DNA of 63,772 nucleotides, the filler included, from Sphacelaria rigidula (taxonomy: Eukaryota): assembly GCA_964200075.2 (NCBI GenBank). It is 11 parts of 11 records of this genome, joined end to end, with 100 filler letters (N's around TTAATTAATTAA, not from the genome) between each part and the next. Parts side by side here need not be neighbours in the genome. Positions count along the whole stretch, not along the records: positions 11,615 to 17,321 come from CAXNAA020025098.1; 10 more parts are not named here. One strand, written 5' to 3'. Made by a program: the position numbers and the translations under genes. Below the pieces are notes generated by a model. It was not told where the DNA came from. It did no database searches and saw only the letters and a program-made list of their open reading frames with translations. Shown in pieces: positions 5,708 through 36,541 of this stretch (position 1 is its first letter; each line of letters starts with the position of its first letter).

Positions 5708-5807
5708 NNNNNNNNNNNNNNNNNNNNNNNNNNNNNNNNNNNNNNNNNNNNTTAATTAATTAANNNNNNNNNNNNNNNNNNNNNNNNNNNNNNNNNNNNN
5801 NNNNNNN
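5708..5807. other. artificial contig linker
   Basis: 100 bp of N with TTAATTAATTAA (stops in all six frames). Confidence 0.99.
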
Positions 5808-11514: not shown

Positions 11515-11614
11515 NNNNNNNNNNNNNNNNNNNNNNNNNNNNNNNNNNNNNNNNNNNNTTAATTAATTAANNNNNNNNNNNNNNNNNNNNNNNNNNNNNN
11601 NNNNNNNNNNNNNN
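11515..11614. other. artificial contig linker
   Basis: N/TTAATTAATTAA, 100 bp. Confidence 0.99.
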
Positions 11615-12308
11615 ACATTTATTCCCGAATTTCCCCCGAGCACTACATGTTAGTATTATCAACTAGGGTTGACTATAGGATGGTGACCCAACAAAAATTC
11701 GGGGGATGGGAGGTCGGGCCAACAAAAAATTCAAGTGAATGATGAAAAATTCGGGAATCCGAGCCCCGACAACGTGGGCTTCCCTTTGCTTCGAAGGCTT
11801 TTTTGTGGGCCAGGGACAGGGTATACCATCTTTGCAGTGACATCACTCCCGGCAACAGCCCCCCCCCCCACTGGTCGTTCTGATGTGATCGATGAATATC
11901 GCCTCGACGTGATTGGACAGATCGCTCCCAGACTTGTTTTACTAACACGTCGTGAACGTGGTGTTAGTGAGCTTCAGTCCCAAACGGGTAAAGGCGCATT
12001 TCTCAAGCGTTTCATGCCCACAATATCAATAATGAACGGGCATATACATAGTTACAGCAGCATAATATTTTAGGGTTGCAGGCGTATGTATAGCTTTTAG
12101 TATTACGTAGCCGCGTGCTTTTTAGTTATGTTCCCTCCCGTATCATATTTATTATCCGTAAAGGCTATATGTATCTCAAAACCATCGGCATGCCTTCTCC
12201 AAGACTCTCCAGGCGCATTCGAAATGGAGACCTAAGATGCATGCATGCATGCATGACGTGGTCAGAATATTTATCTCTTCCTCCCTGGCTTTCATTATGC
12301 GTGCATAC

Positions 12309-12491
12309 CTGAACCTCGCCTTCCCAGCAGATACCGCAGTGGCCTTCGGCATCTCCCTTCCCACCCGAATGCTCCGCATTGTCCTTATCGTAGGGACTGC
12401 CGCTCTTCTTTGCTTTGGTCGCATCAACGCCGAGCTCTCCCAGTTTCTTCCTGCAGGCGTTCTGGATCTTGAGTTGCGGGCCCTTGGGCAC
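12309..12491 (-). CDS. KH-SAM-RING protein exon: SAM C-terminal helix plus start of a RING-like motif
   Basis: ttcag|GTG...CAG|gtatgc, 183 bp, phase 0; VPKGPQLKIQNAC completes the SAM domain; CGICWEGEVQ is a CxxC typical of RING-HC starts. Confidence 0.85.
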
Positions 12492-13008
12492 CTGAAATAT
12501 TATATCATTCGCAGAATGCTCATTTGATTCATCGTGTACAAAAAGGACAACGAACAAGAAAAAAGACTTACACAACACATGCCTAGCCCTTTGACCGCCC
12601 GGGTATATGCGTATGTGTGTGTATACGCGTCCATCGGTTACATCGGCATCCGATATTTTCGATTGGAAAACGACGTAGGGTGTAACTGTTAGGTGTCCGT
12701 CGATCGGTGGGCCGCTCAAAGGGTGATATATACGTATATACATATATACATTCATATGTCTACAGGAAGCATCATTTTAGCCAGCATAGCAGGCCAGCAT
12801 TTTTTTGTCTAATCGAATACCAGAAGCAGCACAAGGCAGGAAATCCTCCACGAAACGGCACCCCCAGCGGTTGCTTAGCTTCAGCGTCGGGGCACAAACA
12901 AACGTGGGGACCCCAACTGAAACCTCGGCACCACCACCACTACCACCACCACCGACACGCCGGCGTGTCAAAAAAACACAAAGTAAGAACCCCGAGAGAC
13001 CAACGCAC

Positions 13009-14082
13009 ATCTATTTTCTTGAAGTCCGCATCCTCCATGAGCACGATCGCGGCGGCGTCGAACTCCCCCTCCGAGAACTTCGGCAGCAATGCCGAACACC
13101 CCGAGGCCTCCAGGACCTCCTTCAACTGTTCTAGTTGTGCAGCTCCGGCGGACGCTTTCTCCCCGTTACCGTTACCACCACCGCCGCCGACGCCGTCTAC
13201 AGAACCAACATCAGTATTGCCGGTGGGAACAACTGGGGGAGCCGGCGCAGCCGACGGCGGTGCAGCCGGCAGTGAAGCATCCGTCCTTGTAGGTGCAACA
13301 GCTGTCGGCTGGACTGAGGCGTGAATCGGCGCACCAGGTGCAACAGCTGTCGACTGGACGGAGGGGTGAACCGGCGCACCAAACGCCCCGGTGGGCCCAG
13401 GCGGCACAGCAGTAGGATTTCCTGTGGGGACAATAACCCCATTGTTTGCTCGGGTGGTCTGAAGTGGCGCCGCTGCGGGTGCGGCGGCAGCGACCGCGGT
13501 GGCGGCAGCCGGGGGGACCAGCTGCTGCCCAGGTGCTCGTTGTCCAGCGCCCTGACCCATGGGCGCACCCAAACCTGGGGGGGCCCGCGGGGGTGCGGCG
13601 ATAGGCGGAGCTGGTGGTGCAACCGGCAAGAAATAACGTGGCTGATGCTGCGTGCCAGCGGGGACGTTCACGTCGGCGTCGGCGGCGGGCGCCGGTGGGA
13701 CCGGTGGCTGCTTCTCCTGGCGAGGGGGGCGTGCTGAAGGTGGGATATTGCCACCGCCGCCACGGTCGCCATGCCTACTGCCCACGTCATTGTTGCCCAT
13801 GGCGGCATTCATATTCCGGTTTTGATGGAGGCGAGCAACCATGTCTCGGTGGCTGTGATCGCCCTGGATGTTGTCGTGTGCACCGCCGCCGGCTCTTGTA
13901 TCTTGAGCATTCACAATGCCACCGTGAAGCCGGCCGACCATTTCTCTCACTTGATCACTATTGCCAATTTCGTCAAAATCGGTTCCCTCACTACTACCGC
14001 CGCCGCCGCCGAATCCGCCGCCTCCGGCTTGGTGTGGATGCTTCTCTTCCTTTCCACCTTCTACCAACTCATTTCCAATAGT
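13009..14082 (-). CDS. KH-SAM-RING protein exon: Gly/Pro/Ala-rich linker plus SAM N-terminal part
   Basis: gagcag|ACT...GAT|gtgcgt, 1074 bp, phase 0; LKEVLEASGCSALLPKFSEGEFDAAAIVLMEDADFKKID fits the SAM pattern; the acceptor position is less certain. Confidence 0.85.
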
Positions 14083-14200
14083 CTGCTCCCCACGACCCAT
14101 GCAAGACATGAAGGACGAATGCAGCGTTTTGCGTACATGGCGAGGAGCAGGGCAGCTAACAGCGATTAGCGCGCACGTGAGGCGGGGGCAGGGTGTGTGT

Positions 14201-14700
14201 GGGGGGTGTACTCATGATCTTGCATGCCGTAGTCATATGACCATCGGTCTCACATCCCTACAAAACGGGATGGAGCACGCCGGATTTTTGCCGGACCAGG
14301 CTTGCAATCAATCACCAAGCGCAAAGCATCGTGATGAGTTCGGTGAGTTGCACGAAGGATGGCCTGCCGCTTGCTGAGATTGTTCGGCCCAAAGCATATT
14401 GATTATGTTCCAACTGGACGACAGGATCCAATGAGTTCCTTCGTTTTCTGGTATCGCCACTTCCAGAGACAACCTCGGGTCACGCCCTGCCTCATGGGTG
14501 TCTCCCATATCAAGACTGCGTAGTATGATCATCCCCTTGGCGTGGAACTGGGGTTCTCCTACCCCGCACAATATGATCTAGCTCGACCACCATCATGGTG
14601 AACGCAGAAACGAAAGCGAAAAACAAAACTGTAACCTGGTTGCCTAGTTTACACAGTGAGTGACGTGTTTTACAGCGTCGTTGCCAACCGACGCCAACCC
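14201..14700 (+). mobile_element. GTACTCA-terminus TIR family, subtype A, ~500-bp copy
   Basis: terminus shared with 17262 and 41096; body matches 50780-50905 and 52261-52618. Confidence 0.8.
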
Positions 14701-14719
14701 TGAAAAGGGAGGGGCGGGG

Positions 14720-15630
14720 AGGGGGGGGGGGAGGTACTCATTTGTTGCTTTAGTCTTTTGACCATTGACCACGCACCCCTTTCGCCACAGAACACCGTTC
14801 CTACTCCTGATAGGGACACCTCCAATATTTCGACGTTCATTACGGTTCCTCCCAACACTACACAAAAATCTTTTACATATCTTATCCCCGTCCTATTTTT
14901 GCCGTCTGTTGCCCCCGTCTATCTCCTAGTATAGCCACCGTTTTCTCGCTACTGTCCAATGCATCAAACGATTTCATGCGGTCTTCGTTCACGTCCCGTA
15001 TTTCCCTTCAACACATCCCGTTCCTCCTTGTATGGTTCACATCTTGCGACTATATTGGGGGTGGGGCGGGGGGATTCTTGAAATATCGCAGCAACAGTAA
15101 AATGATCACCTACGTTATAGGAAAAGTGTACAAACGAGTTGCTTGCCCGACGGGACATACCCCGGCGACAGCTCATGGACCCACACAAGCGATCCGACAT
15201 ATCCAACACATCTGCTCGTGAACCGGGTCGACAACCATGCACGATAGTCCCAAGGAGCGGAAATACGATCGGTGCTGCACGAGTATGGGAGATCCACCTG
15301 CGGGATAAAGGTAGCCTCTCCTCTTTTCTAGACAGGCCGTTTCTTACGTACCTCCGTACCCCCCCACAGATAATGAAACTTGTCACATTAAATCGTAGCG
15401 AGAAACGATCGCTATACTAGTAGCAGTTAGATGGTGGCCACAGACGGTGAAGCAGGAAGGGGTAAGGCGTGTAAAATATCCTTGAGTAATATATAGAAGA
15501 AACGTAATGAACGCCAAAATGTTGGAGATGTCTCCACTAAGAGTAGGAATGGTCCGTATTGCAAGGGATGCGTTGTCAATGGGCAATGACTAAGGCAGGC
15601 AACAAATAAGTACGCCTTCCCCCCCGCCCC
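14720..15630. mobile_element. GTACTCA-terminus TIR family, subtype B, MITE with ~230-280-bp imperfect TIRs
   Basis: 14733-14960 is the imperfect reverse complement of 15390-15615 (CTAGTATAGC..CGTTT.CTCGCTAC vs GTAGCGAGAAACGATCGCTATACTAG); poly-G/poly-C ends. Confidence 0.8.
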
Positions 15631-15866
15631 CCGCCACACACACACACAGAAAGAGGGAGAAGGTACGACAGCAGTGAAATGAATCAGCGTTTAGATCGAA
15701 GCCTCGTTGGGTCGGTCGGTGGAGGGGGTGATGACATCATGGGAGGTCTCTCCCGTCCCGTCCCGTTCCGTCCCCTCCCTTCCCTTCCCTTCCCTTCCGC
15801 GCAACCGCATGGCTCGTGTTTGTAATGAACCCTACATCACGTGAAACAGTTACTGCCCGCACGTAC

Positions 15867-15983
15867 CTCATAGAGCAGGGAAACTGCTGCGGTCACCTTC
15901 GGGGGCACACCAGATACGGTGATGGCTCGTGCTTCGCCGTCGGGAAACTGCTCAAACAATTGCACAGTGGCACCACTCATCTT
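15867..15983 (-). CDS. KH-SAM-RING protein exon: C-terminal half of a type I KH domain
   Basis: cacag|AAG...GAG|gtacgt, 117 bp, phase 0; KMSGATVQLFEQFPDGEARAITVSGVPPKVTAAVSLLYE fits the KH pattern SGAxIxI...RxITIxG...VxxAxxLI. Confidence 0.8.
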
Positions 15984-17261
15984 CTGTGGTGATGCAACGA
16001 CCACGACAGGAACAACAATGACAATAGCAGCAGCGACAACAAAAACATCGGCAAATGAACCAGATTGCCAGCGACCATCCAGGCAGGGGTCATGCGGGAG
16101 TATATATAAATATATATATATATATATATAATATCGGGATAAAACGCGGCTTGGGAAATACTTTCGACGGGCCGCAGACGAAATGCGTATATTGTGACCC
16201 ATCGTTTTGTGAAAGAACAATACTTCGTACATGTAGATTCACAACACAATGGCGGGAAAAATCTTGTCTAACATTGAGTGTTGGTAGAGGGCAATAATGT
16301 AGACGGTGGCATCTGTATTGAACTCTTCGTGTTGATTTTGAGCCAAGCAAGGGTTACGGTAGTTCTTGGTTTATGAAAATACCGGGCACAATGCCCGTCA
16401 CGAGAGCACGAATTGAGAAATAAGAAAATACATACATGCGTTTTCAGAATGTTTCATGATTCACACGAAAAGGTATGTACGATACTCCCACGTTTGCGGA
16501 GAACACCGTTTTTCTCCGAAAATGTCGAAGATTTCTCAACCAGGTCGGGCAATAAGGTGAATTAATACTGACAACAGATTTCTCCGCCGATCCAGCGCCG
16601 GGATATTTATTTGAGCATTTCTCTTGACAGCATTTGTTTTTGAGATTTGTTGCAGCGTTTTGTTTTTGGAGAAGTCGGACAAAAAATCCAATATGTCGGA
16701 AAGAGTAAAAATGAAGAAGAGTTAAAAATGTTGCCCGGCTAATAAGATCATCTAAGTACTCGTTTGAAAATATAACACATTTTTTTACCCAAAATACAAT
16801 ACAACACAGGTTGACCAGATTGTGAAAGTCCTTCCTCAAGGATTGGTGAATGTGTGGATACTGACAACACTCAATTCTCACAATTCTCCGTGCAGGAAAC
16901 TCTACGTTCCCATGTGGACGACACGGTATGATGATGGGACCCTGCTGCCTCATAAAAATAATTCACAGGATTCTACTCTCCTGGCTCCTACCAAAAATTT
17001 GACGGAAAGCAAAAATGAAGTTAAGAGGGCAACGCATAAGTCGCAAAATTGGCGAGGGACTTTTAACAGAGGCAGAACTGCACTAACACCGGAGACTATT
17101 CCGCGGACATTGCTGGCTTGGAAACCCAACGCACACAAAAGACACGTGGTGCATACATATTGTCACGGCTAGCCGGCGAGAAAGACTGTCTCTACAGACC
17201 TCTTCTCGTCAAAGAACGAATAAAGAGGTTCATGAAGAGAGAAGGAGGCAGGGAGGGATGA

Positions 17262-17321
17262 GGGGTGTACTCATGATCATGCATGCCATAGTCATCAGAC
17301 CATTGACCTCGCATCCCTACA
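17262..17321 (+). mobile_element. GTACTCA-terminus TIR family, subtype A, terminus at contig end
   Basis: GGGGTGTACTCATGATCATGCATGCCATAGTCATCAGACCATTGACCTCGCATCCCTAC. Confidence 0.8.
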
Positions 17322-17421
17322 NNNNNNNNNNNNNNNNNNNNNNNNNNNNNNNNNNNNNNNNNNNNTTAATTAATTAANNNNNNNNNNNNNNNNNNNNNNN
17401 NNNNNNNNNNNNNNNNNNNNN
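17322..17421. other. artificial contig linker
   Basis: N/TTAATTAATTAA, 100 bp. Confidence 0.99.
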
Positions 17422-23299: not shown

Positions 23300-24377
23300 A
23301 TCAGCATCTTCGAACCGGCTCAGTCAAAAACATACGTATCATACTACTGAGCAAAACGCGGAAAACATGAACGCGTGTAACGTCCGCCACTGAGAAAAGC
23401 CTAGCACCTCGATTTTTACGCCATAAATAAAACGCTTCGCATCGCCACAAAATAAATACTGAAAGCTCCTTGACGCAATGATCCCCGAGGGCACGCACAC
23501 AGTATCTAGCGGGGTAACCTACTTTATTAAACAAAGGAAAGACAAAATTGAGGTCGAGGTTTCCCACTGCCCTCGGCGGTACATTCCGTATAGCCAACGG
23601 TATAATGGTGCCTGCAGCGTGCGTGTGGGTGTGTATAGGCGCTGGGCAGCTGGCCTGGGCTAGCGTGATCAGATCCGATCCAATAAGGGGTACTCGAATC
23701 AGATCATGGTGTATGTTATCGGTTTGCGCTCGATGGAGGAACCCGTGACAAACATGGGTAGTACCGCCAGGAATTTCCGTAGGAGATTACCGTACGAAGA
23801 AAATAAGAAGTAAAACCGTTGAGTAATTTTCGTGACTCCACTTCACGCCAAAAAAAAAAGAAGCAATGAGACCGTCGAGTAATTGTCATGATTCTCACCT
23901 GTGGGTGCCTTCCCGTCCACCAGCTCGGATTCCGCGTAGAATGCCTCATCTCTTACGCTGTACCAACCAGCGTATACTCCTAGCTCTATTTGTCTGATAC
24001 GGCACCACCGAACAACCAGCACGTCAAGGTTTTGTAATAGTGAGGGGAGAAATGCCGACACACAAACATTAAAGCAGTTACCGTTTGTCTCCAACGACTC
24101 CCCTGGAAACAGGTGTCTAGTTCTCTAGTTTTGTTCTTCTTGGAAAGTATCCGATTTCCATTTTCGTCGACGACACGACGAGGACGTGAGTGGCGAAGAA
24201 ATGTTTTCGAGAGTCGACGCAGTGGATGCGGGGGAGGGCGGGGTGGGGGGGTACTGATGCAACCCGCGATGCCAAGAGTCACGCATGTATCGCACCGGGG
24301 GAGATATGGTTCAAAAATCCCTTGAGACCGCGCACACCTTCCGTGGAAGGCTAGCGTTTCAAGGTACCACGAAAACG

Positions 24378-24410
<33 letters not shown>

Positions 24411-25409
24411 AGGGGTTTGGCGGCTTCCGCCGCCACGCTCAATGAGATCGATAGCCAAGGTACATGAGGATCGGTAATCGTTGCTAGCATCAGGTGACGG
24501 AACAGATCATAGCTTCAAGTGGAGTATATTGCGCTGTGTGCATATAGAGACCCGTGTCCCGGGGGCAGGGTATGAAGAAGAGGCTCAATGATGTTTTGAC
24601 GTTCGTACCAATACGGTAGAACGGGCAAAAGACTACCTCCACCGTCGAAGAACAGATACGAAGACACTCATTTACATTTTTCACCCACAGCAACGAGTAG
24701 GAACCCGATACCCGGGGGCACAGAGACTTGCGACGGATACACACGAGTGTTCGCAACCATGAGTCCAGTACCATTGCACCGCAGAGACGCCCATCGTACG
24801 GAACAGGATCCAGAAACAGCGACTGAGAAGGCATAAAATATCCATTCCCCCTCCTTCGTGGGCAACAACGAAGCAGGCAATACCCGCAATGTAGTGGATA
24901 TATAAGAGAAACGGAAGAAGTAAGACAACAATCGACCAACAGTAGCGACCGATATCCCTCAAAACATGGTAAATGACGACCACGGATTCAACATGACAGA
25001 CTATCCCGTCGTGGGAAGGCCGTCCATCAACAGCAAAGAACACCGACACCGACCGATATCTCCCGAAACACGGACAACCCCGGATTCAACATCACAGACA
25101 TGACCCATTGTACGAAACAGGCTCCAGAAATAGCAGGACAGTTGAGCACACGACAACCGCAACATGGCGTTTCTCCGGCTTCGCCGCCACAATCAGTGGA
25201 TCGACAGCCAAGGTACATGAGCACCGGTGACAGCTGTGTGCGTTGTGTCAGCTCATGGACTGAGCACGGTAGCAAATCTGGATGATGGACACTTTTATTG
25301 AGTGAGATTGGACGGAAAGTCGTTCCGCACAACCCATCCATTCTGATTCAATTTTCAAGTGTCCTGTATACGGTAAGAGGTGGCATCTCCGACGGTCAAA
25401 GGGTCACAA

Positions 25410-35069: not shown

Positions 35070-36541
35070 GGAATCTGCGGCCGTAGGCCGCAGGGGTAGG
35101 CGAGAAAGAAGATCAGCGTTCCCGTTAGTTTTGGCTGGACGGTGCTTAATGGTATACTGGTATGCTGTTGGAAACTCCAACCATCGTTGTACACGGGGGT
35201 TGTGTTCGCCAACCTTGGCGAGTTGTTCGAGTTCTCCATGACCCATATAGATCTCAAAGAGCACGTGAAACAAATGTTGTCAAAGGCGCTTAATGGCCCA
35301 AGTGATTACTCTGCCTTCCAGTTCTAGCGGGCTCCAGTTGGCCTCGTTGGGCAGGGTAGCGAGGCTGATATAAAGGATGGGTCGGACGGAGCCATCAACC
35401 TGAGATTGATTCCAAACTCCGCCAAATCCGTTTGTGCTGGCGTTGGTGTGGAGTTGGAAAAGGCGAGAGCCACCTTGTACTGCTTCCCAATCAGGAAAGC
35501 AGAGTACCGGCTCTTCGGTAAGCGTCTTGAGTAATTCGCGGGTGATATGTTCCATATCGGTTGTGAAGTAAAACACGGCTTCTTTTTTTGAGTAGCTCAG
35601 TAAGGGGGCGAATCCGTTTAGATAAGTTCGGCAAACATTCGTGGAAGTAGGAAAGTCTGCCCAACAATGAGCGAAGTTGAAAAATATTGATTGGCATCGG
35701 CAAGTCAGTCATCGCCTTGACTTTGTTTGTATCTGGATGCAGGCCTACTGGCGAAATGGAATGTCCTAGGAAATCCAGATCAGTCGCACCAAGGCGAGCT
35801 TTGGATGGAGACAGTTTTAAATCGTGTGTGCGTAGGCGAGAGAGAAATTCTCGTAGGGTGCGGATATGTGCAATAGGTGAGGCATCGAAAGCGATAGCGT
35901 CATCCAGGTACATGATGTGCTCGGGGCCCTCGGTGACGCGTTGCATTAAGCGTTGGAAGCATCCCGGGGCAGTGGCAGCGCCTTGTGGCATTCGACGCCA
36001 CTCGGAGAGTCGGGACGAGGTACAAAAGGCCGTCAGTGGGACTGTGTCAGGGTGAATAGCATTCTGAAAGAATCCAGAAGCGAGGTCGGAGGTGCTGGAT
36101 ACTTTCCCTTCGCCTAAGGAGTCGAAGACTCCATCAATGCGGGGGATTGGAAGTTTACCGACCACAGTGACGCGGTTCAACCGTTGGTAATTCACGGCTA
36201 TGCGTATGTGTCCATCCTTTTTGGGACGACCACAAGGTGCGAGGAGAGGAGGAATGTTGTGTTAGGCCCGCTCCCAGATATGCATCCAAGATGGCGTTAA
36301 CTTTCTTGGTAAGGATTGGGTTTGTCCGGTATGGCCGTGAAGAGACCGGCAAAACGTCGGGTTGGAGCGTCACCTCCAAGAGCAGCGTTTTGCAATACCC
36401 AAGATCCGTCTTGGATCGAGACAACCGGTCTTGGTACTGGAGCAAGACATCACTGAGTTCTCGGATGACTGCCGGCTCCCAGCCGGGCCCATGAAGGTCA
36501 AAATCGATGTCGTGCATGTGTGGCGGTAGTTGGTGCCACAT
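35070..36541 (-). pseudogene. Gypsy reverse transcriptase plus RNase H, frameshifted
   Basis: SRPYR, NYQRLN...PIPRID, DLASGFFQ, TAFCT, RMPQG, YLDD, FLGH; RNase H LHTNAS, ELE...WAIK, RVQRWLEF, NGNADLLSRL. Confidence 0.92.

Follow-up and report, generated by a model that had tools for sequence, protein, structure and literature searches.

Does a brown alga carry a KH domain, a SAM domain and also a RING finger in one and the same protein? This question is raised by a partial gene of Sphacelaria rigidula located on the minus strand at positions 12309-15983 of a 63,772-base window (the whole stretch of DNA analyzed here, from assembly GCA_964200075.2), where it sits on the piece at positions 11615-17321. 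A first-pass annotation had proposed that this gene encodes a hybrid of Bicaudal-C and MEX3, that is, an RNA-binding candidate ubiquitin ligase (E3) that might polymerize and form condensates. The piece contains a middle section of a brown-alga gene that is transcribed, and the reading that we prefer, with a probability of about one half, is that its product would consist of one or more KH parts, a linker, a SAM domain, a spacer and a C-terminal zinc module that is most likely of the RING-HC type, such that a MEX3-type RNA-binding E3 would be combined with a Bicaudal-C-like SAM domain.

The exons were delimited by direct reading, all on the minus strand, and AG stands before and GT after every one of them: exon A (15867-15983, 39 amino acids), exon B (13009-14082, 358 amino acids) and exon C (12309-12491, 61 amino acids). 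Their lengths are all divisible by three (phase 0), they are free of stop codons, and when spliced they encode 458 amino acids. Exons A and B are separated by intron 1 (14083-15866, 1784 nucleotides), which is full of interspersed repeats, and exons B and C by intron 2 (12492-13008, 517 nucleotides), the GT...AG borders of which were also read directly and which splits the SAM domain.

Whether these exons are joined in a transcript was addressed using the assembled contigs of four public runs, three of them RNA-like (X1, X2, and X3) and one DNA-like (X5), which were compared with the piece. The RNA type assigned to X1-X4 is a guess that is not on record, and it is backed by the contigs that skip introns. 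Contigs of X1, X2, and X3 lack the introns: exons A, B, and C stand back to back in X1 record 2 (2,603 nucleotides) and X2 record 9 (3,440 nucleotides), while X3 records 16 and 17 have one exon junction apiece. The junctions of the X1 and X2 contigs are at 15867|14082 and 13005|12487, and the latter amounts to 13009|12491, as GTGC is present on either side and leaves an ambiguity of four nucleotides. Among the bins of introns and flanks, the unique ones (11997-12187, 12570-12951, and 16008-17153) have zero depth in X1-X3. In X5, depth was seen in 30 of the 30 bins, and its record 19 (11955-14220) crosses intron 2 unspliced. That exons A, B, and C belong to one transcribed mRNA is confirmed, and since single contigs contain all three of them, the possibility that the KH exon comes from another transcript, which the first-pass annotation had entertained, falls away. 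The same annotation was correct in placing the remaining parts of the gene beyond the contig. The transcript contigs continue past the piece sequence in both directions, by 379-1,297 nucleotides on the 5′ side and by 440-847 nucleotides beyond 12307 on the 3′ side (766-847 nucleotides in the two contigs with all three exons).

The gene is already public in the form of an unnamed partial product, NCBI CAN0063326.1 (Sphacelaria rigidula, 455 amino acids; referred to here as P0003), the sequence of which is 100% identical to residues 2-456 of the 458-residue splice and the label of which agrees with an origin in a brown alga. This partial gene model, the contig junctions and the direct reading concur on the three phase-0 GT-AG exons that had been called on the minus strand, and the present analysis adds to the record a reading of its domains and proof of the transcript.

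Exon A (15867-15983) appears to specify the C-half of a KH domain of type I. It matches profile positions 29-65 of 66 of Pfam KH_1 (PF00013) with an E-value of 0.011 and a score of 15.9 bits, and the two PDB matches obtained with it at E ≤ 10 are both KH domains, those of Nova-1 (E = 0.11) and PCBP2 (E = 0.23), whose alignments to exon A cover the KH C-halves. Each of these matches is weak singly, yet the Pfam family and both PDB structures agree, and the assignment, as first proposed, stands as one that is weak but consistent. The GxxG loop of the domain would be expected in the exon preceding exon A, outside the piece, and the KH-loop pattern [ILV]IGxxGxx[ILVM] was matched nowhere in the window. 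Patterns for the remainder of a RING likewise matched in none of its other pieces.

The first part of exon B (13132-14082, minus strand) encodes a Gly/Ala/Pro-rich low-complexity linker of some 317 amino acids in which Pfam finds no family. Over 312 residues it contains 51 Gly, 50 Ala, and 45 Pro, which together make up 47% of the sequence, and it is the long linker between KH and SAM that had been described. Within it there is a 45-nucleotide tandem duplication (13291-13380, 91% identical) corresponding to two 15-residue repeats, which is a sign of recent low-complexity expansion.

The linker is followed by what is, on the evidence of two libraries, a complete SAM domain split over intron 2. 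Its N-terminal 41 residues are encoded at the end of exon B (13009-13131, minus strand), where they are covered by the Pfam SAM_1 match to P0003, and its C-terminal helix, placed by the PDB alignments, at the start of exon C (12444-12491, minus strand). SAM_1 (PF00536) is found at residues 356-408 of P0003 with an E-value of 0.0018 and a score of 19.0 bits, over profile positions 6-59 of 64. When the C-terminal 112 residues of P0003 were searched against the PDB, seven of the eight matches at E ≤ 10 were SAM domains, those of USH1G (E = 0.0077), ANKS4B (0.0081), ANKS3 (0.067 and 0.094), L3MBTL3 (0.14 and 0.52) and PHC3 (0.3), and the eighth was unrelated. The alignments with the SAM domains extend over about 57 residues, and those with ANKS4B and USH1G span the exon junction as far as residue 412 of P0003. 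As a lead only, the top three named clusters in an Atlas feature search with the SAM N-half are also SAM (score 0.85). The two halves taken separately gave no Pfam match, and in the PDB four unrelated matches at E > 0.7. A real and complete SAM domain at 13131-13009 plus 12491-12444 is supported, although it scores below the curated Pfam value. The SAM domains of ANKS3, PHC3, and L3MBTL3 are of the polymerizing kind and those of USH1G and ANKS4B bind partners, and a SAM domain with more sequence after it, such as this one, need not polymerize.

After the SAM domain, exon C continues with a charged Gly-rich spacer of 35 amino acids that has no family match (12339-12443, minus strand) and ends with CGICWEGEVQ (12309-12338, minus strand; direct reading), the first pair of cysteines in what is probably a zinc module, which is then broken off by the next intron. 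All that the contig holds of the RING-like stretch is HCGICWEGEVQ, the first Cys pair and six residues after it. RING-HC fingers usually begin with a sequence of the form C-x-[IV]-C-hydrophobic-acidic, and we take the E-x-E-V that follows CGICW to resemble the start of the MEX-3 class of RING. There is a single instance of C-x-[IV]-C-[FWLMY]-[DE], CGICWE itself, in the 78,309 residues of the six-frame open reading frame (ORF) pieces of the window, compared with 138 occurrences of plain CxxC in the same residues. The mRNA runs at least 847 nucleotides further, enough to accommodate the ~40 residues by which a RING would have to be completed as well as a 3′ untranslated region. We consider it rather probable that CGICWEGEVQ begins a RING.

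A number of results weigh against this reading of the protein as a whole. The KH_1 score of 15.9 bits is lower than the curated cut-off of 21.5, and a Pfam scan of the whole of P0003 did not list KH_1. The SAM_1 score of 19.0 bits is likewise lower than its cut-off of 23. Single-sequence AlphaFold models are helical and of low confidence, with a predicted local distance difference test (pLDDT) value of 66.7 for the 57-residue SAM N-half and of 47.2 for the 112 residues, and Foldseek used with the low-confidence model of the SAM N-half gave no match at E ≤ 0.001. Ligands 1 and 2 (CGIC) are present on the contig and six of the eight zinc ligands of a RING would be beyond it. Nothing RING-like was found by Pfam in exon C or in its last 24 residues, the PDB search with exon C returned 0 matches, and the Atlas search with exon C gave no usable match, while the sole PDB match of the last 24 residues is a papain-type CGSCW motif (E = 0.55). 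The RING-like motif that had been reported is present in the sequence, and its identity as a RING is not borne out by Pfam, PDB, or Atlas.

There is, in addition, no relative outside Sphacelaria rigidula in searches with single-exon queries, carried out against cluster representatives (among which P0003 is clustered under P0002) and against metagenome contigs of the Joint Genome Institute (JGI). Searches against longer proteins scored none of 8000 candidates with exon B, none of 27 with the KH exon extended by one codon, and one of 38 with exon C, this one being P0001, a genomic read-through ORF of the gene itself. A phmmer search of 1.84 billion representatives with exon B returned P0002 alone, again a genomic ORF of this locus, and 598 and 599 pattern matches to exons B and C in the JGI metagenome contigs yielded none that was confirmed.

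How far do these results favor other explanations? The transcript might be a non-functional or chimeric product of assembly rather than a protein-coding mRNA, given that the contigs are assemblies and not reads and that the RNA type of the runs is guessed. This is very improbable, as three of three RNA-like runs share the junctions, these fall at exact GT-AG sites and maintain an open frame of 458 codons, the public gene model concurs independently, and the GC content at third codon positions of the exons (0.58-0.70) is set apart from the overall GC content of the introns and flanks (0.43-0.52). It might also be argued that the KH call, the SAM call, or both arose by chance and that the gene specifies a mostly low-complexity protein with neither KH nor SAM function; in favor of this are Pfam scores under both gathering cut-offs, empty searches with the SAM half-domains, poor AlphaFold models and the lack of a Foldseek match at E ≤ 0.001. 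We regard this as improbable, if somewhat less so than an assembly product, because Pfam and the PDB, which are independent libraries, concur for KH as well as for SAM, because the PDB matches to SAM come from several SAM families and extend over nearly the whole domain, with the Atlas lead in agreement, and because the KH score is held down by the presence of half of the domain alone on the contig.

The rival to be taken most seriously, itself rather unlikely, concerns the C-terminal motif. The protein would then be a KH-linker-SAM RNA-binding scaffold devoid of ligase activity, like Bicaudal-C, and CGIC would begin another zinc module (PHD, B-box, ZZ, or FYVE-type, for example) or a short structural zinc knuckle. 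It is in keeping with this that KH and SAM are the sole domains with support from searches, that exon C gave no RING signal, and that plain CxxC is common in the window. What speaks for the RING-HC reading instead is the rarity of C-x-[IV]-C-aromatic-E, found once in the same ORF residues and at CGICWE itself, together with the fact that an arrangement of SAM followed by RING is described in a study of a known ligase (PMC11863841). The resemblance of CGICW to the beginning of the active site of a papain-like cysteine peptidase, which would have to continue in the following exons, is suggested by the match of the last 24 residues to a cysteine endopeptidase at CGSCW. This explanation is so improbable as to be nearly negligible, since no matched stretch reached threshold singly, the residues flanking the motif do not match, and Pfam shows no peptidase family; the CGSCW match, which the flanking residues do not extend, is regarded as due to chance.

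Drosophila Bic-C has a KH region (amino acids 56-524), a Ser/Gly-rich region (598-693) and a SAM domain (805-868; PMC3352585), and in Bicc1 RNA is bound by the KH domains while the SAM domain self-polymerizes (PMC4561730). The Sphacelaria product has the same order of KH, long low-complexity linker, and SAM as that given in PMC3352585. However, SAM is the terminal domain in Bicaudal-C, whereas in the algal protein it is followed by about 46 residues of exon C and by further exons, with 440-847 nucleotides more of mRNA, and the host is a brown alga and not an animal, PMC4561730 and PMC3352585 describing the Bicaudal-C family in animals only. No Bicaudal-C chain is present among the two PDB matches of the KH exon or the eight of the SAM stretch. 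In MEX-3C, a pair of KH domains at the N-terminus is combined with a RING finger at the C-terminus (PMC6194269), and MEX3B is an example of a human KH-type RNA-binding ubiquitin ligase (PMC5707401). These proteins resemble the algal product in having KH toward the N-terminus, a long linker, and a C-terminal RING (probable in Sphacelaria, where its first Cys pair is read), but MEX-3 is without SAM, and PDB searches with the KH exon, exon C, the SAM stretch and the last 24 residues gave no MEX-3 match. In the E3 ligase LRSAM1, leucine-rich repeats (LRR), a coiled coil, and SAM are followed by a C3HC4 RING (PMC11863841), and the likeness is that SAM precedes a C-terminal RING, for which the same first Cys pair makes a probable case in the alga. 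The target-recognition module differs, however, being LRR there and KH here, and there is no sequence match.

The likeness to Bicaudal-C and MEX3 is one of architecture alone. The presence of KH and SAM in one brown-alga protein with a Bicaudal-C-like layout is supported by the domain matches, and this part of the proposed hybrid, the KH-linker-SAM order, has held up in Pfam and the PDB. The searches gave no match that would tie it by sequence to the animal proteins, and a RING in it is plausible.

If the preferred reading with a RING-HC module is correct, the protein would have one or more KH domains at its N-terminus, of which the last half-domain alone is on the contig, separated from SAM by a disordered Gly/Ala/Pro linker (~315 residues). 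By analogy, the KH part would bind single-stranded RNA, the SAM domain would make protein-protein contacts, either among its own copies or to another SAM protein, and the RING would recruit a ubiquitin-conjugating enzyme (E2) and thus bring about the ubiquitination of proteins on the bound messenger ribonucleoprotein or of the ligase itself. We infer, by analogy with the families named above, that there is a RING, that RNA is bound and that the protein self-associates and acts as an E3; polymerization, condensate formation, and ligase activity are pure inference. It is possible, but in our view doubtful, that KH, a self-associating SAM and a C-terminal RING make up an RNA-binding ubiquitin ligase that can polymerize on its mRNA targets, that unites the modes of action of Bicaudal-C and MEX-3, and to which domain shuffling in the brown algae gave rise independently.

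Complex multicellularity evolved in the brown algae on their own. A KH-SAM order in such an organism, where no kinship in sequence is detectable, would exemplify the convergent assembly of domains, and if the RING is true, RNA binding, SAM-mediated assembly, and ubiquitination would be linked in one chain. No description of the KH, SAM, and RING combination was found in the literature, as judged by titles and the beginnings of abstracts. Domain fusions and fissions in brown algae affect ~7% of genes according to a preprint (10.1101/2024.02.19.579948), from the main text of which the terms 'KH domain' and 'sterile alpha' are absent.

The locus is also represented by two Logan-derived genomic read-through ORFs from another data set, P0001 (12165-12776, minus strand) and P0002 (12940-14211, minus strand). 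Two amino acids set each of them apart from the window, in exon C for P0001 (G to E and H to L, the H to L difference being in the spacer at 12339-12443) and in exon B for P0002 (K to R and A to T), and the intron-derived parts of both show no difference. These differences look like allelic variation within the species.

As to its surroundings, the window is made up of 11 pieces of 5,706-5,707 bases each, joined by spacers of the form N44-TTAATTAATTAA-N44 (5708-5807, 11515-11614, 17322-17421 and onward through window positions 1-63772). The pieces are probably separate contigs of nearly equal size and not one stretch of the genome, and adjoining pieces provide no genomic context for the gene. 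An Rfam scan of the whole window gave no match, and Pfam recognized no family in 11 other long ORFs of the window. A retroelement is present in another piece, where an ORF of 256 amino acids (35494-36261, minus strand) matches the reverse transcriptase family RVT_1 of Pfam with an E-value of 6.2e-19.

High-copy interspersed repeats occupy parts of intron 1 (14098-15052 and 15385-15635) and both ends of the piece (11615-11996 and 17244-17321). Over these repeat regions, the RNA-like runs have word depths of tens or hundreds at the low end and above 100,000 at the high end, and X5 has far higher ones; in the intron 1 bins from 14098 to 15052 the RNA-like runs reach hundreds to thousands and X5 exceeds 200,000. 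Other pieces contain copies of intron 1 sequence with 72-90% identity, and for the repeats of intron 1 and the piece ends taken together, copies at 72-98% identity are found in at least six other pieces. Intron 1 also contains an inverted repeat pair (14713-14952 and 15395-15635). A (TA)n microsatellite is located at 16101-16136, ~120 nucleotides upstream of exon A in the preceding intron, and a similar tract is found in another piece at 24376-24411.

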